From assembly GCA_965216315.1 (NCBI GenBank), contig CBDCFN010000001.1, positions 1 to 12,282 of the forward strand: a stretch of 12,282 bases of DNA, in the 5' to 3' direction. The first letter of the stretch is position 1. Every line of letters begins with the position of its first letter. The DNA is from a bacterium. Lineage in GTDB: Bacteria; UBA10199; 2-02-FULL-50-16; JAJFLM01. Positions 1 through 12,282 of the stretch are shown in pieces. The notes beneath the pieces were generated by a model, which searched no databases, was not told the DNA's origin, and saw only the letters and a list, made by a program, of their open reading frames with translations. Position numbers and translations under genes: made by a program.

Positions 1-738
1 AATCAATCTGTCTGCTAGGCGACCAACAGGGTTTTTTTTCGTATCGAGAGCCCAAAGAATCGAATAGATCTTTATCTGTTCTTGGTGATCTTTACGTTCC
101 TCCCCCGATTTGTAGTCAATTATTTCACATCCATCATCGTCGATGTTTATCAGGTCGGCCTTTCCCCTCCAAGATATTTGATCAGCAGTAATCCAAGCCT
201 CAGGGAAGCTTCCTCGAGAATAACACGTCTGAGATACATCATCGCTTTGAGTACGCTGCCTAGCTTGGGGAACAAGCTTTATGTCTTTCAATAACTGCTG
301 AACGCTTCGCCTGATATGACCTTGTCTAGCAGTGATTTTAGACTGCAAGTTCTTAACATCTTCAATAATTCTGGGATTGTCTGCTACTTGCTTTAAGTTC
401 GATGCGATGGTATCCGTGATAATTCTGCTGAAACCACTCAGTTGACGAATTACTCCGACCGCCGCTTCCGTTTCCAACGATATACATCCAGCTGCGGTAA
501 GATTATTAGTAACTATTTCAGCAGCTTCATGAATTATATTCCCAACTAAAGCATCCTCAGCTAGAGGCCTCGGATAACCCCTTTTATTCCATAGATCTTC
601 ATAATTGCTCTCCTGAAGCCACCATCTCCTAGGGCATGTCGCAATTTGCTTGTACGTAGAATAAGTCATGAAATCAGGCTTAGCAGGAGACGAAACCGGA
701 TTTCTTACTCGCCAGAAATCAGATGCCTGGGCGATCAT
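1..738 (-). CDS. PD-(D/E)XK nuclease, RecB/AddB/Cas4-like (3'-partial, runs off window; not in ORF track)
   Basis: Manual translation from the ATG at 738-736 (overlaps the druE TAA as TAATG) gives 246 open codons to position 1: MIAQASDFW...MTYSTYKQIATCPRRWWL (CPRRWW 636-619)...LVGNIIHEA (GNIIH 543-529)...FPEAWI...WRGKADLI (GKAD 165-154)...EIIDYKSG (DYK 117-109)...DHQEQIKIYSILW (QxxxY 78-64). Motif order and spacing match RecB/Cas4-family nucleases. Confidence 0.85.
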   Translation of the reverse strand, partial: MIAQASDFWRVRNPVSSPAKPDFMTYSTYKQIATCPRRWWLQESNYEDLWNKRGYPRPLAEDALVGNIIHEAAEIVTNNLTAAGCISLETEAAVGVIRQLSGFSRIITDTIASNLKQVADNPRIIEDVKNLQSKITARQGHIRRSVQQLLKDIKLVPQARQRTQSDDVSQTCYSRGSFPEAWITADQISWRGKADLINIDDDGCEIIDYKSGEERKDHQEQIKIYSILWALDTKKNPVGRLADRLI

Positions 739-3020
739 TAACTGATTGCTCTCATTATTTCGGTCGTGACTGAAGGAAGATGACGCGTCACAGTTATCTC
801 ATTGGCTGGAAAAACTTGAATGGTACCAGAATTGTCTAGTACGTCCTGAAGCTGTGGATCATTAAGTCGCTGAGGCGTGAGCGGATGGCTTACCGCAACT
901 ATAAGTTGTGTATTATCATGTGTTGATATTAGAATTGGGGCTCTTACTACTCCGATACCTGCAATATCAACAGTCTCGTTCCTGTGTAGTTCAACGCCAG
1001 AGAGACCTTGTCTTTGTAAATCGTTGTAAAGTCTATTTGTGGACAAATCTGTTCGCGTACTTTGAAGATTTGGTTCTCTGGCATTTATCAAATAATTTAA
1101 TAAATCTGCACCAAGCTGACGATCTAAACGATCATGCTCAAATTTGTTTTTGTAACTTCTGAGGCAGCGATAGCAAGATCTGTCACAGTGATCCGAACAG
1201 TTTTCCAGTATCCTGAGCGCACGGTTAAATAATTCAAGCCCGAACTCCCCGAGATGCGGAGAAAAGCCTGCGCCACCTGGCAATGTGTCGTAGAGATAGA
1301 TTTCAGCTTCTAGGCCGGTGCTTCCGGCCTCAGTTAAAGCGGGCCTGAATTCCGCCTGAATCTCCCCAGATTCAAGCGCCAACAACTGTGTACCTGCTAA
1401 AGTTAATGCTTCACATAAAGTGCGAAGAGCAGTTTCCGTACTGAGGAGACCGGGTCTCAATGTAATAGGAACATTAACTTGCAAGCTGATCAATAAAATA
1501 TCGGATGGAAAATCTGTTCCCAATACTATGGCTCGGGCAGTTCTCCCACCTGGGCAATCGGGTTCGCGATTATCTGGAAATGGTTTCCTATGACTTTGAG
1601 TTGTAGTGCCACGAAGAATTGCCGACGGTTCAATCGCTCCGCAGACAGTACAATAATTGTATCCCTCGTTAAGCGTACCTCTATTTGTTACCAGAAGATG
1701 TTCTCTTGTTCTGTATAATCTAATGCGTTCATTTATACGTTCCCATTCGCTTTCTGCTCCGGCCTCAGTCGTGAGCTTAGCACGAGTTGCATAGCTTCGT
1801 GCAGGTTGATCCTCTGGAGCTGTGACTGGCTGTATGTTGGAGGGATGTGCAAAACCTGGGGGGCGCAACCACCACGTTGCCGGCCCAAATGTGCCAGCCG
1901 ATCTACAGGCAGGACAATCCCTTACTTCATCTTTTTCGGCTTCCGAGGCAGGATGAGTCGAAGCAAACTGGCATTCTGAACATTCAAAGTAGAGCCTACG
2001 AGATTCCCATGCGCGCTGTCGTTCACTATAAATAGGCGTATATAGTGCTCCAGATTGCCACAATCGACCGTCTATCCACACATGTTTGCCGGGTGCATAC
2101 TGTGTTAAAGCTATGCTCAAGCCCTGCGAGGGAGTATAAAGAAACGCCTGGCGATAGCGTGTAAAATTGGCATCATCAAAAATGTAGAATGTCGTAACAT
2201 CTGTAGGAAAGGCATATCGTGGAAGGACACCCTTGTATAAGAGCCTATCCAAGAGATTCTCGGCTTCTGCGCGGCCGATATTTGTTGTTGTATCACCTGC
2301 TTCTGAAGGTACTTCCAGTGGCTCAAGAGCATCATCATTACTATCCTGTCCGTCTTCAAGATTAGGATCATACATAATAGCATCGTCAATGGGACGCAGG
2401 GTCTCTTCAATCAACTGATCTAAAAGTATTTGCCTTTGCGCTTGGTGTAAGTCATCCGGTAACCAATCATCGACATCATTTCTAAGGTGGGAGATATTTT
2501 CTCTAAGCCATTCCCCAAAATCATCTCTAGTCAGCACAGATGTACTACCGCGGAATGCCGCAACGCTTCCAAGAACGGAAAAGAGATTGTGGGGCTGGTC
2601 TTCTGGAGAGATGTGCGGTAATCGTGCCTGATGATATCTTTGAAGAAGATATGCCGTAACATGCCTTCTCGTTATATCGCAGTTATCTAAAGTAAGAATA
2701 GGGTCATCAACTTTGCCTCTAATCATTTGGTCTGGTTCACGGAAATAATGCTCATCATGACTATCGGAGCTCGCGAATCCGATCACGGTTGCTACAGTGG
2801 ACGACCTTCTACCTGCGCGGCCTGCTCTTTGTTGATAGTTTGCCCTCCCGGGAGGCATATTTCGCAGCGCCACACCGGATAACGCACCAATGTCTATTCC
2901 AACCTCCATTGTTGTTGTGCATGACAAGACATCGATAGCCATCCGATCGGGACCGTCGATTGTGTCACCCAGATCTACATCTTGAAACAGCAGTTCATAC
3001 TCCTCTGCTTTCGAGAACAC
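738..3020 (-). CDS. druE: C-terminal segment of DruE-like helicase (motifs V-VI, Zn ribbons, DUF1998); frame is open to 3269
   Basis: TTTMEVGIDIG (motif V), YQQRAGRAGRR (motif VI), GVLPRYAFP, ALTQYAPG, CSEC..CPAC, CTVC, and YDTLPGGAG...C...CDRSCYRCL (DUF1998 / MrfA-Hrq1-type Zn site). Confidence 0.75.
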   Translation of the reverse strand: MFSKAEEYELLFQDVDLGDTIDGPDRMAIDVLSCTTTMEVGIDIGALSGVALRNMPPGRANYQQRAGRAGRRSSTVATVIGFASSDSHDEHYFREPDQMIRGKVDDPILTLDNCDITRRHVTAYLLQRYHQARLPHISPEDQPHNLFSVLGSVAAFRGSTSVLTRDDFGEWLRENISHLRNDVDDWLPDDLHQAQRQILLDQLIEETLRPIDDAIMYDPNLEDGQDSNDDALEPLEVPSEAGDTTTNIGRAEAENLLDRLLYKGVLPRYAFPTDVTTFYIFDDANFTRYRQAFLYTPSQGLSIALTQYAPGKHVWIDGRLWQSGALYTPIYSERQRAWESRRLYFECSECQFASTHPASEAEKDEVRDCPACRSAGTFGPATWWLRPPGFAHPSNIQPVTAPEDQPARSYATRAKLTTEAGAESEWERINERIRLYRTREHLLVTNRGTLNEGYNYCTVCGAIEPSAILRGTTTQSHRKPFPDNREPDCPGGRTARAIVLGTDFPSDILLISLQVNVPITLRPGLLSTETALRTLCEALTLAGTQLLALESGEIQAEFRPALTEAGSTGLEAEIYLYDTLPGGAGFSPHLGEFGLELFNRALRILENCSDHCDRSCYRCLRSYKNKFEHDRLDRQLGADLLNYLINAREPNLQSTRTDLSTNRLYNDLQRQGLSGVELHRNETVDIAGIGVVRAPILISTHDNTQLIVAVSHPLTPQRLNDPQLQDVLDNSGTIQVFPANEITVTRHLPSVTTEIMRAIS

Positions 3021-3162
3021 ATCAGCAGACTGCGCCGCATTTAATTGTGCTGTATGCTCAGCTGCGATAATTGATAGCGGTGGAATATCATCTTCGAGAA
3101 GAGCCCTTGAGGTTTTACGGTAGTATTCCTTTCGAGCAGAAAAGACTGGATCAGTATTAGGA

Positions 3163-6100
3163 TCAATAATGTCGACTGCATCTTGACCACAATGTACACA
3201 GATGCGGTGTCCAGGGAATGGACGTTGGGTAGTGCGGCATGTCTGGCAATAGCCCCAGAGGTCCCTCCATTAGGAGGGTCACGCTACCACCACTTAGCCT
3301 GTAACCACCACCTCCTGTTTGAGTGCAAAAATGAGATAATAAAGCTGGCAACCAACGTTCTCTAAATGATCGTTTTAGCGTTGAAGTAGTTAGAAAATTA
3401 CGTTCAAATCTTCCGAACTTTCCCGTATTGTGTGTACTGATATATCTATTGGAACGATCTGTCGTATTTTCTCTCCAATCATCAGGACAAAGGCTTAGCC
3501 AGATTCGCTCCGGCTTTTGCCAATATCGAATCCAGTTTCGTAACAGTGCGAGTTTCTGTTCTTCAGACTCCGCTAATCCCGGGAGATCCGGTAATTCAAT
3601 AATCAAATCTTGAGATAAGTCTAATCGCTCACAGATTGATGCAAGCCCCAACGCTTCTAGTCCATAATATCTTGCGAAGATAATATCGTAAATGCCGTTC
3701 AATAGTGAGACCGGTGGCCGAGCCGTACGTAGAAATCTGTCGACAAATCGACCAAATTCTCGAGGGTTATTGAGTAAACCTGCATTTAACCTGTCAGTAA
3801 GCTGAGTTTCGTGACCTAAATCATCACTTTGTCGTATTTCCGGTCGGAGCCTTACGCCATACTCGTGAGCCGCTAATAAAACTGCAAAATAGGAATGGTC
3901 GAGAGTAAGGACCTCACTCATATCATCAAATCGATACATCCTGGCAAAGCCAGCTAGCAATAAGGGTCTGAGAGCATCCTTCATTGAGAGAGATTTTAAG
4001 TTTGGTGCCAATCTTGCTGCTGTCTGGCGCGAATCTGAAAACACCAGTGATTTGCGTCCGCGAAGTGGTGCGAATGGCGTTGCTAGATGCGGTCCCGGAG
4101 GTTGGACAGCAATTTGCTTTGAAACTAACGCTTGAAAGGGCTGATCGCCACTCGTCTGGTGATCTTGTACAGACGAACGTCCGTAGCCAGCTTGCTCGTC
4201 GCAGACGGCGCATGGCGAGAATTGTCCTGGCTCAGAATTACTTATTTGGTTGCGTCCATCAGCAACCCTATTTGGCTGGAGAAATACTTGTCTTACACGT
4301 TCGCCCAGTTGGTTTGGACTTCCCTGACCCGTAACAACATCAAAATCAAGCGGTTCTGGCTGGTTGTCGAGTGTCTCTGCAGGAGCCTCGAGTAGCAGGT
4401 CTATTGGCGATAATTCCCTCAAATCACCCTGTTCAGTTCGTATACGATTACCTTTCTCAGACCATAGATAACGAGGAGACTCGACATCGTCGGTATACGC
4501 ACGCGCATAAGCTGTACCACAATTACGACATGTGAACAGTTCATACACTCTCGCCCCACAGCTACAAATATCACGCGGCTGACTATATGGTCTGCCAGTT
4601 GGTCCGCCCCTATCAGTTTCAGAAATTGCTGTGCATTGAGGGTCCAAACAAGCCCAAAGCCCTGCAAGGCCACGGAATAAACAGTGTATTCTGCATGGTA
4701 GGAGACCCGGTAAATCTGGCTCTCTTCTAGCTATACTTCCGAATGCTAGAAGAGTAGTTACCGCCTTATCTCTCACCTCAGGATCAACTTCTGGAAATAT
4801 GAGTCCCCCAAGCGAATCAAGACGAATTGCAGATTGCATTGAAAGATTAATCAGTTGATTGAGAGGCTCGAATTCCCTTAAGGCTTCATACAATGCTAGA
4901 TGTAGAGGTAGATCAGGAGATACTCCACGCATAGTCAGAAATGATTGGATCACGTTGCTTCTTTGATCATCACTAGCATTATAAAATGACTGCAAATCAA
5001 TATTGCCTAATAGTTCAGCTTCTGCAGCACTCCCAGGCCTTGCATTATTTCTTAGGTCGAGTGTTCCTGTTATCGACGTAAAACCAGATGACGTCTTACC
5101 AGATAAGCGAGCGGCAAACTGCGCTGCGTAATCATGATCTGCAAAACTTGCACTGGTGCAAATCACCTGAATTCGGTCTTCTGGAACCGCTAATCTTGAT
5201 CTAAGTCTGCGCAATAACAGCGCAACCTCGGCACCCGCGGCACCGCGATAAAGATGCGCTTCATCAATGACTATAAGAAACCGTTCATTAGGATTCTCTC
5301 TAAGCCAAGCGCTAGTGCGATCGAATATCGGACGCTCAATTGGACGCATTAGCATGTATTCAAGCATCGAGTAGTTAGTCAGTAAGATGTCTGGCGGCGC
5401 TTCTAACACTTCGTGTCGGGTCAATAGTTCCACGTCCTCCGGTAACGTTACACATCTTGCAAATCGCCCATTTCTATCAGTCCATCTTTGATTTGGGCGC
5501 CCGTACCACCTCTCCAGGTCAGGTTTAGCAGGCCATTTTCCTCGCCGCTTCAGTTCTGCTATCAAGCGGGCGGAGGCTCCTCGTTGGGGATCATCAGGAT
5601 CTCTCGCTTTTCTTAAGTGGTCCACATAGTATCGTCCGATGGGCGCAAGTCTTTGTTGGTCTTTCTGTCTAGTGCGAATGCCAGGGTACAGGGTCCGACT
5701 TGTATATCTTGCGAAGCGAATAGGTCTTCCGCACCACTTATTAAATAGTGTTGTAATTCTGGGGTCACCAAAAAGAAGTCGTAAACGGCCAAGTTGGTCG
5801 TTTACCAGTGCATTCATTGGATAAAGAATGATGCAGCGGACGGCGTTGAATTCAGCGAACTGACTGCGCTTTTCAGCTGCTTCCATGGCGAGTTTACCTA
5901 GGATCGGCAATAAGAAACATTCAGTTTTTCCAGACCCTGTTCCAGTCATTACAACGGTATCTCTGCCGCATGCTAATGTATCTTTGATAGCTTCCGCTTG
6001 GTGTTGATATGGTGGATCGTGAATTAGGCACGAACCACCGTCTATACCACTTACTGCAGCGAAAGCTTCCAATGCAGCCTCATGCAGGCCTAATGATCGA

Positions 6101-6285
6101 AACATGTCTCCAGTTACGTATTTCGGCGTGCTTTCAATATATGGAACCTGGTAAATATTTCCCGCTTCTGACAACAGTCGCTGTCTTTCACGGACAAGGA
6201 ATGGGTGACTTATGTGGTATGTCGCTTCTATGTAATCCCGCAATTCATCTTGAAGGTGTGAAATTGTTTGGCCAATGGTATTCAT
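3163..6285 (-). CDS. druE: N-terminal segment of DruE-like SF2 DEAH helicase (last ~30 residues out of frame)
   Basis: PPYQHQ (Q motif), TGTGSGKTE (Walker A, 5946-5920), YPMNALVNDQ (Ia), TNYSMLEYML, DEAH (5265-5254), TSAS (III), Cys clusters CLDPQC/CSC/CRNC/CAVC, FSDSRQTAA (IV). Confidence 0.8.
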   Translation of the reverse strand: MNTIGQTISHLQDELRDYIEATYHISHPFLVRERQRLLSEAGNIYQVPYIESTPKYVTGDMFRSLGLHEAALEAFAAVSGIDGGSCLIHDPPYQHQAEAIKDTLACGRDTVVMTGTGSGKTECFLLPILGKLAMEAAEKRSQFAEFNAVRCIILYPMNALVNDQLGRLRLLFGDPRITTLFNKWCGRPIRFARYTSRTLYPGIRTRQKDQQRLAPIGRYYVDHLRKARDPDDPQRGASARLIAELKRRGKWPAKPDLERWYGRPNQRWTDRNGRFARCVTLPEDVELLTRHEVLEAPPDILLTNYSMLEYMLMRPIERPIFDRTSAWLRENPNERFLIVIDEAHLYRGAAGAEVALLLRRLRSRLAVPEDRIQVICTSASFADHDYAAQFAARLSGKTSSGFTSITGTLDLRNNARPGSAAEAELLGNIDLQSFYNASDDQRSNVIQSFLTMRGVSPDLPLHLALYEALREFEPLNQLINLSMQSAIRLDSLGGLIFPEVDPEVRDKAVTTLLAFGSIARREPDLPGLLPCRIHCLFRGLAGLWACLDPQCTAISETDRGGPTGRPYSQPRDICSCGARVYELFTCRNCGTAYARAYTDDVESPRYLWSEKGNRIRTEQGDLRELSPIDLLLEAPAETLDNQPEPLDFDVVTGQGSPNQLGERVRQVFLQPNRVADGRNQISNSEPGQFSPCAVCDEQAGYGRSSVQDHQTSGDQPFQALVSKQIAVQPPGPHLATPFAPLRGRKSLVFSDSRQTAARLAPNLKSLSMKDALRPLLLAGFARMYRFDDMSEVLTLDHSYFAVLLAAHEYGVRLRPEIRQSDDLGHETQLTDRLNAGLLNNPREFGRFVDRFLRTARPPVSLLNGIYDIIFARYYGLEALGLASICERLDLSQDLIIELPDLPGLAESEEQKLALLRNWIRYWQKPERIWLSLCPDDWRENTTDRSNRYISTHNTGKFGRFERNFLTTSTLKRSFRERWLPALLSHFCTQTGGGGYRLSGGSVTLLMEGPLGLLPDMPHYPTSIPWTPHLCTLWSRCSRHY

Positions 6286-6299
6286 AATATATTTCTAAT

Positions 6300-7376
6300 T
6301 TATGCCATCTGCTTTAACCAGAGGTTAGTTTGGCAGAATTTCACTTCACTTTGACAGTATTGACTTTTAAATCTGTACGCAAATAGGGAGTCCTTTGACT
6401 TAATTGGCTGGCCAATTGAATCCCACTTGCGGAGAACCCATCTAGGAACAGGCGAATAAAAATCGAATATGAATTGCTCATGATCTGTCTTGCTTACCCG
6501 GAACAACTGTGGTGATCCGTTAATAGCATCAAGCGCCATTTGAATGTACCATGCATCGTCGCATCCGCGTCCATTTGATCTTTCCAGCGGTAAATTTAGT
6601 GCTCGAGTGAGCTTTCCATTCTTGATTTCCAAATAACTCCAAAGGGCATTCCCGTACTTTCTTGGACGGCGAGCTATGAATCTGCCCACTGATTTGTGTA
6701 TAGGGCTCCATCGCTGCTTATAGAATCTCGGGTTTTCAGTTGGCTTCATTATCAGGACGTCTTCTTTAAGATCGACTTCTTGTGTCTGATCTAATTCTCT
6801 ATCAATTGCTTGAATGAATTTATGGGCAGTAATTTGTTTGGATGTAGAGAGCCAATATGGAGGGCAGAGCCAGTATTCTAGCGAGAATTCCATGAGACCC
6901 GATTTATTCAATATCGTAAGATCATCACCCGAGATACTATCTATTCGTCTTACATGTCTCCTATATGTTATTCGTGACTCCAAGTCACTAGGCAGAGGTG
7001 AAAAGTAGTCCGGTACGATCCCTAGCAATAGAAGTGCTCCTGGCTCGAGTTTTACAAATGCTGGAGGTCCTGCGTAGAGCAGCTTCCGCATTTGCCCTTC
7101 GTCAACAGAAGTAAGTTCCAATAAATCTCCATAAGATGTCATATCGTTGATAATGTCTGGGATTGACTGAATATACTCATCATCTACCAAGCCTCTAAGT
7201 AGTGAGCCAACCTGCGCAGTCAGCGTACTAGCTGAACAAGGACAAATAAAGCCTGCGACCTTCCTTACTGTTGCCGCAATGGCTTCAGGTGATGAAAGGT
7301 TCAATGCCTGTGAATTCAAACGAAGATTCGCAATGACAATTCTCTTAGCTTCATTGTATTCCAAAACTCTCATCAC
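6300..7376 (-). CDS. Druantia accessory protein, DruD-like by position and size (start GTG 7376 or ATG 7373)
   Basis: 358-codon ORF starting 1 nt after the upstream stop and ending 14 nt before druE. No recognisable catalytic motif; the DruD assignment rests on gene order only. Confidence 0.65.
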   Translation of the reverse strand: MMRVLEYNEAKRIVIANLRLNSQALNLSSPEAIAATVRKVAGFICPCSASTLTAQVGSLLRGLVDDEYIQSIPDIINDMTSYGDLLELTSVDEGQMRKLLYAGPPAFVKLEPGALLLLGIVPDYFSPLPSDLESRITYRRHVRRIDSISGDDLTILNKSGLMEFSLEYWLCPPYWLSTSKQITAHKFIQAIDRELDQTQEVDLKEDVLIMKPTENPRFYKQRWSPIHKSVGRFIARRPRKYGNALWSYLEIKNGKLTRALNLPLERSNGRGCDDAWYIQMALDAINGSPQLFRVSKTDHEQFIFDFYSPVPRWVLRKWDSIGQPIKSKDSLFAYRFKSQYCQSEVKFCQTNLWLKQMA

Positions 7377-7377
7377 A

Positions 7378-10269
7378 TTACCATCTCCATGAGGAATAAA
7401 GAGCGCCTAGTTCCTTGCCTGCTTGAGATCCAAGCCTCTCTTCTACGGATAGAACAAAGTATCTTGCCAGTAACGGAAGTACTGGATATCGCTCCAATGC
7501 TGTTATGCCACCTACGAGCTTCTCGTCGGCCCACGCAGATACGGTACCGGGATCGGATGCAACTCTAAGGCACAATTCAGAAAACCATGTTATTGATTCA
7601 AAAGGTGAAGACTTCTGAAACATACGGTGTTTTTCCAGAGCGTACTCAAACCATGATTTCCTTTGAAAGGTGGCAAGTGGCGAGACCTGATCTAGTTCAG
7701 TGAATATGAAATGTGCAATACTACCGAATTTCCAGTAATCTGAGAGTTCGATTAACATTCTTTTGAGTGCAACACGTTCAGGACGATTTGCATATTGACA
7801 CTCCATGTCCAGCCATTCCGCTCCCCCGAAGATTGCAAACAATCTCTGTAGCATATTTAACACCACGGAACGCTTGATTAGGACTGCTTTCAAGTCGTCG
7901 AGTGTCTTCGCATTTGCCCAAAGGTCCAGAAGTCGCATTGCACTTATTGTTTGACCGGATTGCCAAACATCGCTTTTCAACTGCGGTGTAAATCTCAGTT
8001 CTTTCAATGATAGCAGTCTAGCAGAAGGGCTTACGATAAAAGAGGTTTCATCACCATTTGCTCTTGCATGAAAAAGAACTGTGCGCTTTGTTACCTTCAT
8101 TCCTTCTACTGCTTTTTCATAGTCCAGGTCTACGGATATATCTGGAAATTCGGAGGTGAAATAGCATGTATCTTGTTTCTTAAGAGAATCGGTGTCGTCA
8201 ATTAGCATTGCAATATTTGATTTACCTTTTCTCTGTACGCTCCACCGTAGTGCAGATACTTGTCTCTCAGCACTAATGGATGCATCACCAAGTTCACCAC
8301 CGCGGATAACCACTCTACATGAATGAGCAGGATCGGTTTCGCCGCGCTTCCATTTCCTTCGAACGTGCTGAACAAACAGCTCTCTCCAATCGTCTATAGT
8401 CACAGGCAGAGTAGAGTCGATTGGAGCGCTTTCGAGAACTAGAATGCCACGCCGATCAAAAAATGAAATGATGAAGGTAATTCTTGAAGCGACAGGTCCC
8501 TGAACGGCTATATCGACATCACCATTCCAAATATCTTCATAACTCGGCTGTATAGGATCTGTAAGAACCATTAAAGGATTACATGGGCTCGATCCCATAG
8601 ACCAGTCCTGTGGCTCTCGTATATTAATGCTTATTTCGGCTGTAACAGAATTATATTCTGGTGTGCTTGAGTGCGTTAAAAGTTTTAGAGTATAGCTTCC
8701 CGTGTATAAGCGGGGAAGTTCAATGAAATGCGTATATGCAGAAGCGATGGGCACTGTCAGCTCCTGTTTCGCAAAGCCCTCAAGAGCAATAGAAATGCTC
8801 TCTATTTCCTTATTAGCGCGCACCGCTATTATAGGACGGTCAGTTGACAACCACTCTATATAACCCTCACCGTCCCATTGCGAGGGCGATACTCCCGCCG
8901 GCCAAACGTCCAGATATGTAATTTCTTTCAATCCAAGACGCTGAGCGTCATTTTGTGTAAATGGTGAAATGCCGGAATCGGAGACGTCAAACAATATGTT
9001 GGATACACCTGGGGAGGCCAATTTAATTGTCGTTCCATTAATATCGGGGAGACGTTGATCTTTACTAATTAATATATAGCTGCTTCCAGGGCGCAGAGTT
9101 CCCCCTCTTATGTATGCCGCAGTTCCATCGGAACGTAGCTTGAATAGCCAGGTATTCCCGCGGCTTCTGATTGTTATATTCTCAAACAGCTCTCGCAATT
9201 CATTGTCATGACAGTCGATTGGTTCTAGCATTGGTACATTTGACTCAGGCCATTCGCTAAGTCTGACTTCGCGGCGATAGAGAAAGTGTCCTCGGGAAAA
9301 AGGACTGCTTGATTTCGCTCCACGCACTTGACATCTTACGTTCTGGAATAGTCGCTTTAATTCGGGATCAGAAGATAGGAGAGCGCCAAATTCTGGCATT
9401 ATCGCGTACAGACTGTACTCTCCCTCGTCATTAGGTCGCAGTTGAAGCTGAGGTGACATATTGCCATACTTAATTGCAGATCGTTTTCTTTGACTGCGCT
9501 TATTATCTCGCCTTCCTTTTGTTACTCCATGAGTGATTAACTGCCGGGTTTGACGACGGATCTCTCTCAACCATTCTCTGGACGCTCGCTCGCGCCCTAA
9601 ATCACTTACAATTCGCCTGAGAGTGCGTTCAGAAATTAGTTCCCTGTTCTCACCTAATTGTTCGGCTAAGAGTGCAGAGCTGAACTGCCAGACTAAAGCA
9701 CGATTATTGAGAAAGTTGGCAAATCGGTCAGTGAGATGAAGTGATCTGGCCTCAATCGTCGCGGCCAAAAGTTCCGGATCTTCAAAATGCTCATCTCGAA
9801 GTAACGGTCGCAATCTATACAACGATTCTAGAAACTGTCGTTGTAAATCCAGAGGTAGTATCGCGTTCGTAATCGGCCATGCGATGATTCGGAAATGCAT
9901 TGCCCACGCGCCCGAAGGACTTATTCCCCTATAGGTTTGTTTGAATCTTTCAAAGGCATCGCTAATCCATTTTCTGTTTCCGCACATTTTCCAGGCGGGC
10001 AGTCTTTCTTCGAAGGTTTGCCAGTATTCATATCCCGAAAACTCGTAGCCAATTTCAGCAGCAACAACGGCACATGGTAGCCAATATTCGCTTATGTCCG
10101 TATCTTGCTGAAATGCTTGATTAACTGAAGTGAATAGATTTGTTAACTCCGTGTCATCCAATTGATGCTCTAGAGCAAACACATATGCGTGATCACCCAT
10201 GCGCTCGCGTTTAGTCCGAATTGCCGAGAACGCACCTGATAGGCGATCTTGCCATTCATGGATTCTCAT
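7378..10269 (-). CDS. Large Druantia accessory protein (963 aa) in the druB/druC position; possible fusion
   Basis: Uninterrupted ORF whose ATG overlaps the druA stop (TAATG, 10271-10267). N-terminus is Trp/Tyr-rich and helical-looking (VFALEH..YWLP..AAEIGY..EYWQTF..IIAWPITNAILPLDLQ), followed by a basic linker, a beta-strand-like middle and a helical C-terminus. Gene existence is secure; product identity is inferred from synteny. Confidence 0.65.
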   Translation of the reverse strand: MRIHEWQDRLSGAFSAIRTKRERMGDHAYVFALEHQLDDTELTNLFTSVNQAFQQDTDISEYWLPCAVVAAEIGYEFSGYEYWQTFEERLPAWKMCGNRKWISDAFERFKQTYRGISPSGAWAMHFRIIAWPITNAILPLDLQRQFLESLYRLRPLLRDEHFEDPELLAATIEARSLHLTDRFANFLNNRALVWQFSSALLAEQLGENRELISERTLRRIVSDLGRERASREWLREIRRQTRQLITHGVTKGRRDNKRSQRKRSAIKYGNMSPQLQLRPNDEGEYSLYAIMPEFGALLSSDPELKRLFQNVRCQVRGAKSSSPFSRGHFLYRREVRLSEWPESNVPMLEPIDCHDNELRELFENITIRSRGNTWLFKLRSDGTAAYIRGGTLRPGSSYILISKDQRLPDINGTTIKLASPGVSNILFDVSDSGISPFTQNDAQRLGLKEITYLDVWPAGVSPSQWDGEGYIEWLSTDRPIIAVRANKEIESISIALEGFAKQELTVPIASAYTHFIELPRLYTGSYTLKLLTHSSTPEYNSVTAEISINIREPQDWSMGSSPCNPLMVLTDPIQPSYEDIWNGDVDIAVQGPVASRITFIISFFDRRGILVLESAPIDSTLPVTIDDWRELFVQHVRRKWKRGETDPAHSCRVVIRGGELGDASISAERQVSALRWSVQRKGKSNIAMLIDDTDSLKKQDTCYFTSEFPDISVDLDYEKAVEGMKVTKRTVLFHARANGDETSFIVSPSARLLSLKELRFTPQLKSDVWQSGQTISAMRLLDLWANAKTLDDLKAVLIKRSVVLNMLQRLFAIFGGAEWLDMECQYANRPERVALKRMLIELSDYWKFGSIAHFIFTELDQVSPLATFQRKSWFEYALEKHRMFQKSSPFESITWFSELCLRVASDPGTVSAWADEKLVGGITALERYPVLPLLARYFVLSVEERLGSQAGKELGALYSSWRW

Positions 10270-11603
10270 TAAATTCTCAATGTCTCCAAGTGTGATTCGC
10301 TATTGGGTAATCGCTTGATGTTCTCAATAAGTAGTTTTTGAAATTCTCGTGTGAGACCTTGATGTGATTTCTTTAACTCTCGCTTTATTCCAGATTGTCT
10401 AGGTATATTAAGTGAAATGTGATGAGAGTGCTTTCTAGATAACAGCTTTGCTAGATCTGTTTTCTTCCAATACAAATATTGCGGACGTCTTTCAGCACGG
10501 GGTATGAGCCATCTCTGTAAAGCCGCGGCTCCGACTTCACTCACTGATTTAAGTGATCTGTACCGCGGAATGGTCGATTTACCGGTGAGAAGACTACTAT
10601 AGTTCTCAATAAACTTACAGGCATATACCTCTCTAAAAACACCATGTCGAAGTACATCACCATTTAACCCCATAGATTCTAATGCAGCTCTCGTAACGCG
10701 AAGCTTCCAATTTGATCCACTGCCATATTCATGTCCATCCGCATAAGGATGATCAATAGCTGTAAGGTATGTCCGCAGGTCATTGAATAAACTGTTGGGG
10801 ATATGGAAATGACCCCATCCCTCAGTAAAGCCAATTGGTTCAAAGTATTTAATCCCATCTAATTGCAATCGATTGTAAACAGAGGATCTCCCCAGAGCAG
10901 AGGATGTTGTGACTAAAGAGAGCGATGCGTTCTTATGCTTCCGTGAAATTATTCCCTTTCTATTTCCATACTTGACGCGGAAGGCTCTCCGAACTTCTTT
11001 TGTCCTAATGAGACAAGCAATCATCTTCCCGCATAGCAGGAAATTGTATGGTGGTATTGCACCAACCACGTATGCATCCATGCAATTAACAAGTCGTTTC
11101 TTCCGGTCATGCGAGGACCATCCGATGTATTCATCTCGGACTCTTGAATTAAATACGGGATCACCTAATGCGAAAAGTCCTATGAGTTTTCCATTAAAGT
11201 CATCCCACACTAAGAATCGAATGCGGCGACCGTATCCACGTGAGACTGGAACGCTCCATGTAAGGCTTGCGAGCCTAAATAGGTCTGACTGCCATGTGTT
11301 GGACTCGATAAGTTCCAATCTGGGAGATACTTTTTGAGGAATGACTTCAACACCAGAGGCAAAATATTGAATGAGTTCGTCATATCTTGAGCGAATAAAT
11401 GGCATTTCATTTTTCAGGAGGTCACTTTTTTGTTTTCGATGTAACTTCCTAATGATTTTCTTTTTATCACTAGGTGGTGATATGTACCCCTGCTTATTCT
11501 TATCAAATCCTAAAGCTGAAAGATGTGTAGAGAGCTTCTTTTTTATCCTCGCTTGTACGCCATTAAGATGTGACTTATTCGCGCGTGTATTTCGTGAATT
11601 CAT
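10269..11603 (-). CDS. druA: Druantia protein DruA (DUF4338 family)
   Basis: Recognised blocks WSVPVSRGYGRRIRFLVWD, GKLIGLFALGDPVF..RDEYIGW, MDAYVVGAIPPYNFLLCGK, TTSSALGRSSVYNRL, IGFTEGWGHFH, GSNWKLR. First gene of an operon that ends in a DUF1998 helicase. Confidence 0.85.
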   Translation of the reverse strand: MNSRNTRANKSHLNGVQARIKKKLSTHLSALGFDKNKQGYISPPSDKKKIIRKLHRKQKSDLLKNEMPFIRSRYDELIQYFASGVEVIPQKVSPRLELIESNTWQSDLFRLASLTWSVPVSRGYGRRIRFLVWDDFNGKLIGLFALGDPVFNSRVRDEYIGWSSHDRKKRLVNCMDAYVVGAIPPYNFLLCGKMIACLIRTKEVRRAFRVKYGNRKGIISRKHKNASLSLVTTSSALGRSSVYNRLQLDGIKYFEPIGFTEGWGHFHIPNSLFNDLRTYLTAIDHPYADGHEYGSGSNWKLRVTRAALESMGLNGDVLRHGVFREVYACKFIENYSSLLTGKSTIPRYRSLKSVSEVGAAALQRWLIPRAERRPQYLYWKKTDLAKLLSRKHSHHISLNIPRQSGIKRELKKSHQGLTREFQKLLIENIKRLPNSESHLETLRI

Positions 11604-11622
11604 TGTTCTATTTAACTCTCAT

Positions 11623-11835
11623 TCATCGATAGATACTATATTCTTTTTCCAATAATTGATCGGCTGCCATGTTGAGCATAAAATCTGACGTAGGGAAACA
11701 ATTGATGCCTTGGCGGCGATGGAGGGAGAAACAGCCTGGATATCTCGCGAAGTCTTCTAGTTTGGATCGACTTAGGCTGTATGGCCTATCCGAATTTGGA
11801 TCATAAAGGTTGCTCTTGCGCTTACTGATAACCAT
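11623..11835 (-). pseudogene. Truncated, degenerate N-terminal fragment of a PD-(D/E)XK (RecB-family) nuclease
   Basis: NLYDPNSDRPYSLSRSKLEDFARYPGCFSLHRRQG...FMLNMAADQLLEKEYSIYR resembles a nuclease N-terminus of the type LSRSKxxxFxxCPRCFYLDRRxG...FxLNxAVDxLLKKEFDxxR (recalled pattern), with the first Cys replaced by Tyr. It stops after 70 codons, before any catalytic motif. SD-like GAGGGGG lies about 11 nt upstream of the ATG. Confidence 0.6.
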
Positions 11836-11871
11836 TCGGCTGCATTCCCCCTCACGTAATTATTCTAATGC

Positions 11872-11900
11872 AATTTATGACGAAGCCATTTAAATCTCAA
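11872..11900 (-). promoter_or_regulatory. Candidate sigma70 promoter pointing into the operon
   Basis: TTGAGA (11900-11895, 5/6 match to TTGACA), 17-nt spacer, TAAATT (11877-11872, 4/6 match to TATAAT), in an AT-rich intergenic stretch. An alternative -10 element TAGAAT lies at 11867-11862. Confidence 0.4.
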
Positions 11901-12172
11901 GCGAGATCAAGCTGTTACGCCATACAAGATAGCTGACTGATTTCATCGCCTATGGCGAGAAGTTATCCAATACCTCCCACCCACCCCATAATTTACAGCC
12001 CCGGACTGAACATCTGTCATAAGCGGGGGCTAAGGACGGTCCAGTCCTTGTCATATCGTTTGCGACGCCCTGTGGATATCTTCTACTGAGGGCAGGACAC
12101 AGAGTGATTTCCGCCACGACCACGCGGCGGCCCGCGCAAAGGGAGTGCAAGTGGGGTGCACGGACCGTGACA

Positions 12173-12204
12173 GCACGCCCCCGGCGGGCTGGCGCGGGAC
12201 GTGC
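12173..12204 (-). terminator. GC-rich stem-loop just after the upstream gene's stop (no U-tract; terminator role uncertain)
   Basis: Minus strand GCACGTCCC...GGGGCGTGC forms a 9-bp stem with one G.U pair, starting about 10 nt after the TGA at 12216-12214. Confidence 0.25.
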
Positions 12205-12213
12205 CACTCGGGA

Positions 12214-12282
12214 TCAAGCGGAGGGAGGGTTGAGAGTTTCAAGAAACTCCGTGATCGCGTCGATTTCCCGCGCAATCGCAGT
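12214..12282 (-). CDS. Probable C-terminal end of an upstream gene (5'-partial), product unknown
   Basis: Open from the right edge: TAIAREIDAITEFLETLNPPSA*, an amphipathic-helix-like sequence with many G/C-ending codons. Only 22 codons are visible. Confidence 0.4.
   Translation of the reverse strand, partial: TAIAREIDAITEFLETLNPPSA

Follow-up and report, generated by a model that had tools for sequence, protein, structure and literature searches.

A widespread architectural variant of Druantia type I with one ~970-residue protein in the place of DruB and DruC

The closest described relatives of the operon considered here are Druantia type I and Druantia type III. According to Fig. S1 of PMC8565338, the 2021 PADLOC rule for type I has the core families DruA1, DruB1, DruC1, DruD1 and DruE1, with a minimum_core of 5 and a maximum_separation of 3. 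The domain DUF4338 has been named as a GNAT domain (PMC10853773), and the helicase DruE of type I is described as ending in a predicted inactivated Vsr-like nuclease domain (PMC12458937). For type III it has been reported that DruE binds exposed single-stranded DNA and unwinds it in the 3'-to-5' direction (bioRxiv 10.64898/2026.05.13.724758), and DruH has been proposed as the sensor (bioRxiv 10.64898/2026.05.12.724681). In the literature found, no mechanism is established for Druantia type I, and the mechanistic work concerns type III. The operon under study lies on a stretch of 12,282 nucleotides of bacterial DNA (assembly GCA_965216315.1, contig CBDCFN010000001.1, positions 1 to 12,282), and this whole stretch is called the window. 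A preliminary description made from the letters of the window had read the operon as a distinct variant of Druantia, an interpretation that is supported and right in substance. The window probably carries a Druantia-type anti-phage operon of recurrent architecture that is unlike the described type I druABCDE. This architecture is a widespread, as yet unnamed variant of Druantia type I, common rather than rare.

All genes of the operon lie on the minus strand. Six open reading frames (ORFs) represent five genes, since the ORFs of 1040 residues (6285..3163) and 760 residues (3020..738) make up one druE. The operon begins with a short form of druA (10269..11603, 444 residues), whose DUF4338 is a predicted GNAT-like domain. 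It continues with the gene of a 963-residue protein (7378..10269), which belongs to a family without a name and stands in place of DruB and DruC, a druD-like gene (6300..7376, 358 residues), the two parts of druE, and the first 246 codons of a gene for a Cas4-like Fe-S PD-(D/E)XK nuclease (1..738), which is cut by the window edge. TAATG overlaps of one base each join druA to the 963-residue ORF at 10269 and druE to the nuclease gene at 738. Between the stop of the 963-residue ORF (7378) and the start of druD, which is GTG 7376 or ATG 7373, there are 1-4 nt, and the spacing between druD and druE is 14 nt. A check of the ORFs and their junctions agrees with the five co-oriented genes, gaps of 14 nt or less and two TAATG overlaps of the preliminary description, apart from the break inside druE. 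Its assignment of the five genes as druA, a large accessory gene, druD-like, druE and a nuclease is upheld by PADLOC and Pfam, and so is its count of two genes instead of three between druA and druE with a nuclease gene downstream. When the PADLOC Dru models were run on the window proteins, DruA1, DruD1 and DruE1 were matched and none fitted the 963-residue protein.

The layout recurs in many genomes. A pattern search of species-representative genomes gave 279 matches, and 229 of them code for a relative of the 963-residue protein, so the occurrence in no other genome that had been named as an objection to a distinct variant was not found. The counts of loci that follow are those of the best 80 of the 229. 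When the window proteins were mapped on the ORFs of these 80 loci, DruD was the next gene in all 70 loci with room for it, and DruE was found in 69, in 62 of them as a single ORF of 1750-2100 residues. Of the 65 loci with an intact DruE and 1.3 kb or more of sequence past its end, 43 have the nuclease gene next to druE in the same orientation. The short form of DruA stands directly upstream in 36 loci, as in the window, and a long form (~680 residues) is upstream in 17; DruA is elsewhere in 19 of the 80 and was not found in 8. PADLOC detected no DruB or DruC when 69 neighbouring ORFs without an assignment, taken from 18 of these loci, were scanned. Judged from record titles and tree labels, the carriers belong to ~16 phyla and include cultured Halotalea, Castellaniella, Streptomyces and Mycobacterium. 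A further, annotated example is plasmid pNWAT01 of Nitrosococcus watsonii, which encodes DruA, a hypothetical protein of 955 residues, another of 360 residues and a helicase of 1849 residues, with no nuclease.

The protein that sets the layout apart has no match in the PADLOC library at E <= 10 or in Pfam and NCBIfam at E <= 0.01. Its full-length relatives of ~970 residues number at least 618 in the protein collection, none of them named, and the best is 48% identical. The canonical families number 95 clusters for DruB and 97 for DruC; all three counts come from a word-filtered search and are hence rough. Wherever the organism is named, the sources of DruB and DruC are beta- and gammaproteobacteria.

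It could be argued that the operon is simply an ordinary type I operon whose 963-residue protein derives from a diverged fusion of DruB with DruC. The gene holds the same position between druA and druD, the DruA of the window is 52% identical to canonical DruA, and the remote homology of DruD to canonical DruD would make a fast divergence of the middle genes conceivable. One hhalign alignment, which is not significant (E 0.5), even pairs residues 260-458 with DruB residues 67-262. The size, however, is 963 residues against 548 + 627 = 1175. The PADLOC DruB and DruC models matched none of 24 relatives at E <= 1. In hhalign, an alignment of 24 sequences of the 963-residue family was compared with canonical alignments of DruB (24 sequences) and DruC (23 sequences), built from searches with the E. 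coli proteins, and the probability was 0.1% for each. Searches with hmmsearch --max in both directions gave only scattered matches, with E > 0.03 and at inconsistent positions. The CoiA_N Zn-ribbon of DruB is without counterpart in the 963-residue protein, and the predicted middle of the latter is all-beta. In controls, the PADLOC library recognised the E. coli proteins DruB (PDLC00005, E 3e-270), DruC (PDLC00006, E 0) and DruD at E < 1e-170, and the same profile-profile method links two DruD families at E 4.9e-6. A fused DruB-DruC was therefore rejected by PADLOC, by hhalign with single sequences and with alignments, and by hmmsearch --max, and an ordinary type I operon of this kind is most improbable. 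To the extent that sequence can tell, the 963-residue protein is distinct from DruB, from DruC and from a fusion of the two. The variant proposed in the preliminary description stands accordingly, as the genes have no one-to-one fit to type I, and the 963-residue protein and its 24 relatives are without a DruB or DruC match. Canonical DruB itself (E. coli, locus L083:6547-8193; relatives P0223-P0317) starts with a Zn-ribbon of the CoiA_N type (PF25164) at residues 20-50. It is labelled 'competence protein CoiA family' in some sources, and the remainder of the protein has no Pfam match.

The AlphaFold2 model of the 963-residue protein has a pLDDT (predicted local distance difference test) of 78.5 and a pTM (predicted template modelling score) of 0.45. 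It is modelled with a helical N-domain (residues ~1-230), a run of beta-sandwiches (~270-750) and a helical C-domain (~770-950). Foldseek with the whole model returned in its top 50 only generic arrays of the Ig, FN3 or macroglobulin-like kind with a template modelling score of ~0.1; the N-domain, when folded by itself (pLDDT 73.5), had no PDB match at E <= 0.001. A search of PDB sequences with DruA, DruD and the 963-residue family gave only chance matches, with E > 0.04.

Another suggestion assigns the ~970-residue protein to the DruH/YjiT family, as a remote member, and makes the system a hybrid of type I, from which it has DruA and DruD, and type III, from which it has the pair DruH-DruE. 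In bioRxiv 10.64898/2026.05.12.724681, DruH is assigned to the YjiT family. The nearest clusters in the ESM Atlas (score 0.93-0.94, 946-972 residues) have YjiT_N (PF27201) in 10-21% of their members and YjiT_2nd (PF27205) in 12-14%. The protein was compared with a DruH set (full-length E. coli DruH, K-12 YjiT and eight homologues from plasmids), with a 9-sequence DruH alignment and by way of deeper local profiles. Each of four independently prepared hhalign runs gave as its best alignment one of the two N-termini, residues ~19-95 with DruH 23-94. Both proteins also have helical ends around a beta-rich or Ig-like core. The E values of these alignments, however, are 0.09-0.28, with 0.93 in a reversed-profile control, and are not significant. 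No match was obtained with the PADLOC DruH or NCBIfam STY4851/ECs_5259 models, and a profile search of PDB sequences that include DruH (9tud) did not find it. DruH is likewise missing from the Foldseek lists (top 50 for the whole model, E <= 0.001 for the N-domain), though the presence of 9tud in that library (entries released to 8 April 2026) is uncertain, and Pfam YjiT_N was found in 0 of 24 family members, though the library copy may lack that model. The profile comparisons are consistent with a kinship to DruH/YjiT but not significant, so that the lead is not supported and a hybrid of types I and III seems unlikely. In E. coli K-12 MG1655 (locus L087, 12415-16856), yjiT encodes 505 residues and is the N-terminal part of a longer gene. 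The full gene in strain ECONIH1 encodes 1096 residues (L088:9001-12291) and is followed by a DruE-like helicase. The K-12 gene after yjiT, yjiV, is annotated as a pseudogene, and this part of K-12 has the appearance of a type III Druantia that has decayed.

The remaining genes tie the operon to type I to different degrees. DruA of the window matches PADLOC DruA1 (PDLC00002, E 8.4e-178) and Pfam PF14236 (E 1.5e-88, 297 bits against a cut-off of 27), and it is 52-53% identical to the canonical DruA of E. coli, P. putida and Ralstonia and to that of N. watsonii. The druD-like protein matches PADLOC DruD1 (PDLC00010, E 1.6e-92; PDLC00012, E 7e-84). BLASTP found no match between the DruD of this layout and canonical DruD. 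When 57 DruD sequences of the variant were compared with 3 canonical ones by hhalign, however, they were linked over 225 columns with a probability of 86% and E 4.9e-6, and by this profile comparison the DruD of the layout is a remote homologue of canonical DruD. For DruE, a tree of 69 rows was used. The three canonical rows form one clade with support 100 on a very long branch, and the window falls, itself on a long branch, inside the main group formed by its own layout. The base of the tree is a polytomy, so the tree does not tell which layout is older.

Measured against the 2021 PADLOC rule, the window has DruA, DruD and a class-1 DruE and lacks a detected DruB and DruC, that is three of the five core families. 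As the rule demands five core genes, it would miss the locus. PADLOC-DB already holds DruD models that fit the layout (PDLC00010 and PDLC00012), and the DruD of N. watsonii fits a PADLOC-DB DruD model at E 1e-147. The variant is partly caught by existing models and is not wholly new to databases. In PMC8565338, the text of Fig. S4 has nodes named 'Cas4/exonuclease', 'HATPase' and 'Hyp' near the Dru nodes, and the main text, in the part available, is silent on them. No paper was found that describes this operon, though supplements of the bioRxiv papers may bear on the point, and none was found that combines 'DruK' with 'Druantia'. Table S1 of Bell et al. 2025 (PMC12458937) uses 'Druantia Type I-like' for the N. 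watsonii helicase WP_013221943.1 and for E. coli DruE WP_072644811.1. The former, a labelled relative, is 50-52% identical to the DruE of the window, which is itself not in the table. The group of Bell et al. is defined by an inactivated homologue of CnuB (McrB-like) and is linked to Type IV CoCoNuT (PMC12458937). None of the window proteins has an AAA/McrB-type match in Pfam or NCBIfam, although an inactivated domain may escape such models, and the model of the 963-residue protein is without an alpha/beta AAA-like region.

The druE gene of the window is interrupted. PADLOC DruE1 (PDLC00013) matches the 1040-residue ORF with 1042.6 bits over profile positions 5-977 of 1776 and the 760-residue ORF with 764 bits over positions 1060-1773 of 1776; these ranges are successive and do not overlap, which makes the two ORFs one gene in two pieces. 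Pfam finds DEAD (E 5e-20) in the 5' part (3262..6285, residues 1-1008 in the original frame) and Helicase_C and MZB (PF09369) in the 3' part (738..3257), which lies in the +1 frame and contains RecA2, the MrfA Zn-binding domain and the C-terminal domain. The N-terminal part also matches the helicases 9tu7 and 9wae at E 1e-44 to 1e-42. In tblastn, four intact homologues follow the upstream frame up to codon 3264-3262; the match then resumes in frame +1, with the Trp codon 3257-3255 that opens a WxYCxxC Zn-ribbon. A TAA at 3272-3270 closes the downstream frame just before this resumption, and the 1040-residue ORF runs out of frame past 3262 to its stop at 3163. The frameshift that the preliminary description had implied is thus real in the sequence, where the comparison with homologues puts one extra base within ~3258-3269 (site 3258..3269). 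Split druE genes are also found, at other positions, in 4 of the 69 DruE loci (L047, L053, L078 and L080, from a phmmer map of the ORFs), so the break is taken as sporadic damage or a sequencing error and not as a programmed shift.

Whether the locus is a decaying remnant is a related question. If the +1 shift is a real inactivating mutation and not a sequencing error, the window would hold such a remnant, and the split genes of the four relatives demonstrate that breakage of druE happens. Against this, the 5' part is 50-56% identical to the intact DruE of relatives up to residue ~1000 and the 3' part is 52-59% identical to their residues ~1002-1849, with no further stops, and all other genes of the locus are intact. 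Since druE is otherwise intact, as are its neighbours, the lesion must have arisen very recently if it is not an artefact at a short run of G/C. Judged from the sequence, the window copy would be a very recent pseudogene or carry a sequencing error, and a remnant with a real mutation has somewhat less than an even chance.

The nuclease gene matches Pfam PDDEXK_1 (PF12705, E 3.4e-12, 47.3 bits against a cut-off of 22), with weak matches to Cas4 and DruK. In 41 full-length relatives of ~410 residues, Cys35, His70, Glu186, Asp201, Asp214-x-Lys216 and Gln227...Tyr231 are invariant, as is the cluster Cys302-x2-Cys305-x5-Cys311. The window copy keeps C35, H70, E180, D195, D208, K210, Q221 and Y225, positions with no or almost no variation among the 41 relatives; C302, C305 and C311 are seen only in the relatives, as the CxxCx5C motif lies past the window edge. 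We take this residue pattern to be that of the Cas4/AddB-type Fe-S PD-(D/E)XK nucleases. The catalytic motifs, with the four Cys residues in the relatives, place the protein in the RecB/Cas4-like Fe-S branch of the PD-(D/E)XK superfamily. Full-length relatives match PADLOC DruK at 1e-9 to 1e-15, Cas4 at 1e-7 to 1e-9 and PDDEXK_1 at 1e-16 to 1e-21. The curated Cas4 cut-offs are not reached, with TIGR00372 scores of 20.6 for the window fragment and 33.8 for a full-length relative against 65, and a PF01930 (Cas_Cas4) score of 21.9 against 22.7. The preliminary description had also suggested that the operon may continue leftwards. Where the nuclease is full-length (41 loci), the only gene found repeatedly behind it is DruA, in 7 loci, so the leftward continuation would consist only of the ~165 missing nuclease codons.

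The nuclease could be an unrelated neighbour or a part of another defence system. PD-(D/E)XK nucleases are common in defence islands, and this one is absent from 22 of the 65 relatives and from the N. watsonii plasmid. On the other side, the adjacent and co-oriented placement in 43 of 65 loci extends over many phyla, and the gene overlaps druE by one base in the window. DruA stands directly after the nuclease in 7 of the 41 loci with a full-length nuclease, in six of them as a convergent long form; the nuclease then lies between DruE and DruA, which puts it inside the system. The last argument comes from complex prediction. Residues 1300-1848 of Halotalea DruE, the C-terminal 549, were modelled with the nuclease of the same organism, each with its own alignment of 22 rows. 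Docking was scored at 0.84, 0.83 and 0.83, and none of 3 controls exceeded 0.00. Of the calibration cases, 116 of 157 solved complexes and 2 of 215 mismatched pairs attain the score mark, figures that are only a rough guide when own alignments are used. Between runs at least 94% of contacts are shared, and the partners have a pLDDT of at least 85. The predicted interface includes nuclease residues 88-104, 129-152 and 382-401, with the invariant Gly102, Arg143 and Gln147 among them, and on the side of DruE the residues ~1446-1467, 1774-1805 and 1816-1826 (L018 numbering), so that the last ~100 residues of DruE take part; the C-terminal extension of the nuclease (~100 residues) is part of it. 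The nuclease is thus predicted to dock on the C-terminal region of DruE, and an origin as an unrelated neighbour is very unlikely. We know of no like complex.

On this basis a mechanism can be proposed for the Druantia-type operon. By analogy with type III DruE, the helicase would engage or load on phage DNA. The Cas4-like nuclease, docked on the C-terminal region of DruE, would be carried to the phage DNA and cut it in trans. Since the Vsr-like domain of DruE itself is predicted to be dead, it is proposed that the nuclease supplies the cut. The ~970-residue protein may be a sensor or scaffold, as has been proposed for DruH in type III, a role presumably filled by DruB and DruC in E. coli. DruA and DruD, which are common to canonical type I, would keep whatever common role they have there.

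Several points weigh against the reading of the window as a working operon of a separate variant. Every functional step is one that we infer. The role of the ~970-residue protein is suggested by its position and by a predicted fold with a pTM of 0.45 and no informative structural match. The docking expresses the confidence of a model, obtained on a relative whose proteins are 35% and ~57% identical to those of the window, and the loci that lack the nuclease point to an accessory rather than an essential part. In the DruE tree the monophyly of the layout is not forced, and canonical DruE could arise from within it. With druE broken, the window copy may do nothing.

The findings may also be brought together in a wider scheme. 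The layout would be the majority and possibly ancestral form of DruA-containing Druantia, spread horizontally through ~16 phyla, and the druABCDE of E. coli a narrow proteobacterial offshoot. The ~970-residue protein would be a very distant sensor of the DruH/YjiT type, and the Cas4-like Fe-S nuclease an effector in trans, docked on DruE's dead Vsr-like domain. Taken together this scheme is rather doubtful. If the layout is the majority or ancestral form and has a DruH-type sensor, types I and III would be unified as machines of the kind 'sensor + DruE + nuclease'.

If the layout works, the consequences are of several kinds. Tools that require DruB and DruC would under-count Druantia outside the Proteobacteria. 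DruB and DruC would be dispensable, and the conserved core would narrow to DruA, DruD and DruE. The predicted docking of the nuclease on DruE would offer a testable answer to how phage DNA is destroyed by a DruE with a dead nuclease domain. Cultured carriers include N. watsonii C-113 with its plasmid, Halotalea alkalilenta DSM 17697, Castellaniella daejeonensis JCM 16240 and Streptomyces ardesiacus NBRC 15402.

Other observations concern the relatives and the flanks of the operon. In the long form of DruA (~680 residues), DUF4338 is confined to the C-terminal half. Directly upstream of the long form, and usually overlapping it, is a gene for a GHKL ATPase of ~500-540 residues (L018:6178-7788, followed by 7785-9836; also L001, L005, L013, L015, L020, L028, L031 and L044). 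It matches Pfam HATPase_c_3 at 1e-21 to 1e-23 and the N-terminus of PADLOC MzaB at 1e-9 to 1e-18. The window has no such gene; where it is present, the ATPase appears to form a second accessory module of the system. DruE is near-identical in some distant hosts, as in L018 and L021 (Halotalea and Castellaniella, with end branches of 0.004), L041 and L003 (Polyangiales and Aridibacter) and L037 and L012 (Terriglobia and Gemmatimonadetes), pairs that cross classes or phyla. Such near-identity suggests recent horizontal transfer or, in metagenome-assembled genomes, possibly binning errors. Mycobacterium sp. E2733 (L047) has two ~970-residue paralogues (5012-8149 and 9923-12832) and a druE split into 1340 + 532 residues. 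On plasmid pMl2 of Sinorhizobium medicae (L082, NZ_CP140931.1) a copy of the layout is broken by insertion sequences, IS21 before druD and IS3 inside druE, and the druE pieces are annotated 'DEAD/DEAH box helicase' and 'DUF1998'. In the window, the non-coding region upstream of druA (11604..11900, minus strand) has one weak sigma-70-like match at 11900-11872; the scan gave two promoter-like sites against 1.0 expected by shuffling, which is no evidence by itself. Further upstream, G+C climbs from ~35-47% to 60-73% over the last ~230 bases (12050-12282), a sharp compositional junction. No transfer RNA, transfer-messenger RNA or Rfam family matched in the window, 12050-12282 included, and the full window had no megablast match in E. 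coli genomes and plasmids.

The operon can be compared with several known systems. The nuclease shares with the Cas4/AddB-type Fe-S nucleases and with PADLOC DruK the motifs D..(D/E)xK, QxxxY and Cys...CxxCx5C. It differs from Cas4 and DruK in its length of ~410 residues and its C-terminal extension of ~100, and the DruK matches cover only parts of that model. Type III DruH-DruE, for which there are solved structures of DruH (9tud) and of helicases (9tu7 and 9wae), likewise combines a large DruE helicase with a partner of ~1000 residues that has helical ends and a beta-rich part. A defence directed at DNA is common to both, for the present operon as a proposal from genes and models. The similarity between the ~970-residue protein and DruH, as given above, is not significant, and type III has no DruA, DruD or Cas4-like gene. 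According to PMC12458937, its DruE has PLD nuclease domains of its own, unlike that of the window.

The comparison with canonical type I was made with three loci, E. coli strain 165 (NZ_CP020509.1, annotated druA-druE), P. putida pKF715A and a plasmid of Ralstonia UW163. The middle of the operon differs most, with one ~970-residue protein against DruB (548 residues, with the CoiA_N Zn-ribbon) and DruC (627 residues) and no detectable similarity between them. DruE of the window is 30-39% identical to canonical DruE, against 50-59% within the layout, and DruD of the layout fits PDLC00010/12, in contrast to canonical DruD, which fits PDLC00009. A Cas4-like nuclease gene follows druE in two thirds of the loci of the layout and in none of the three canonical loci. 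DruA is equally identical in both layouts. As in canonical type I, the order is A, middle, D and E with DruD in the same position, and the helicase is a DruE1-class protein of ~1840 residues with DEAD, Helicase_C and MZB.

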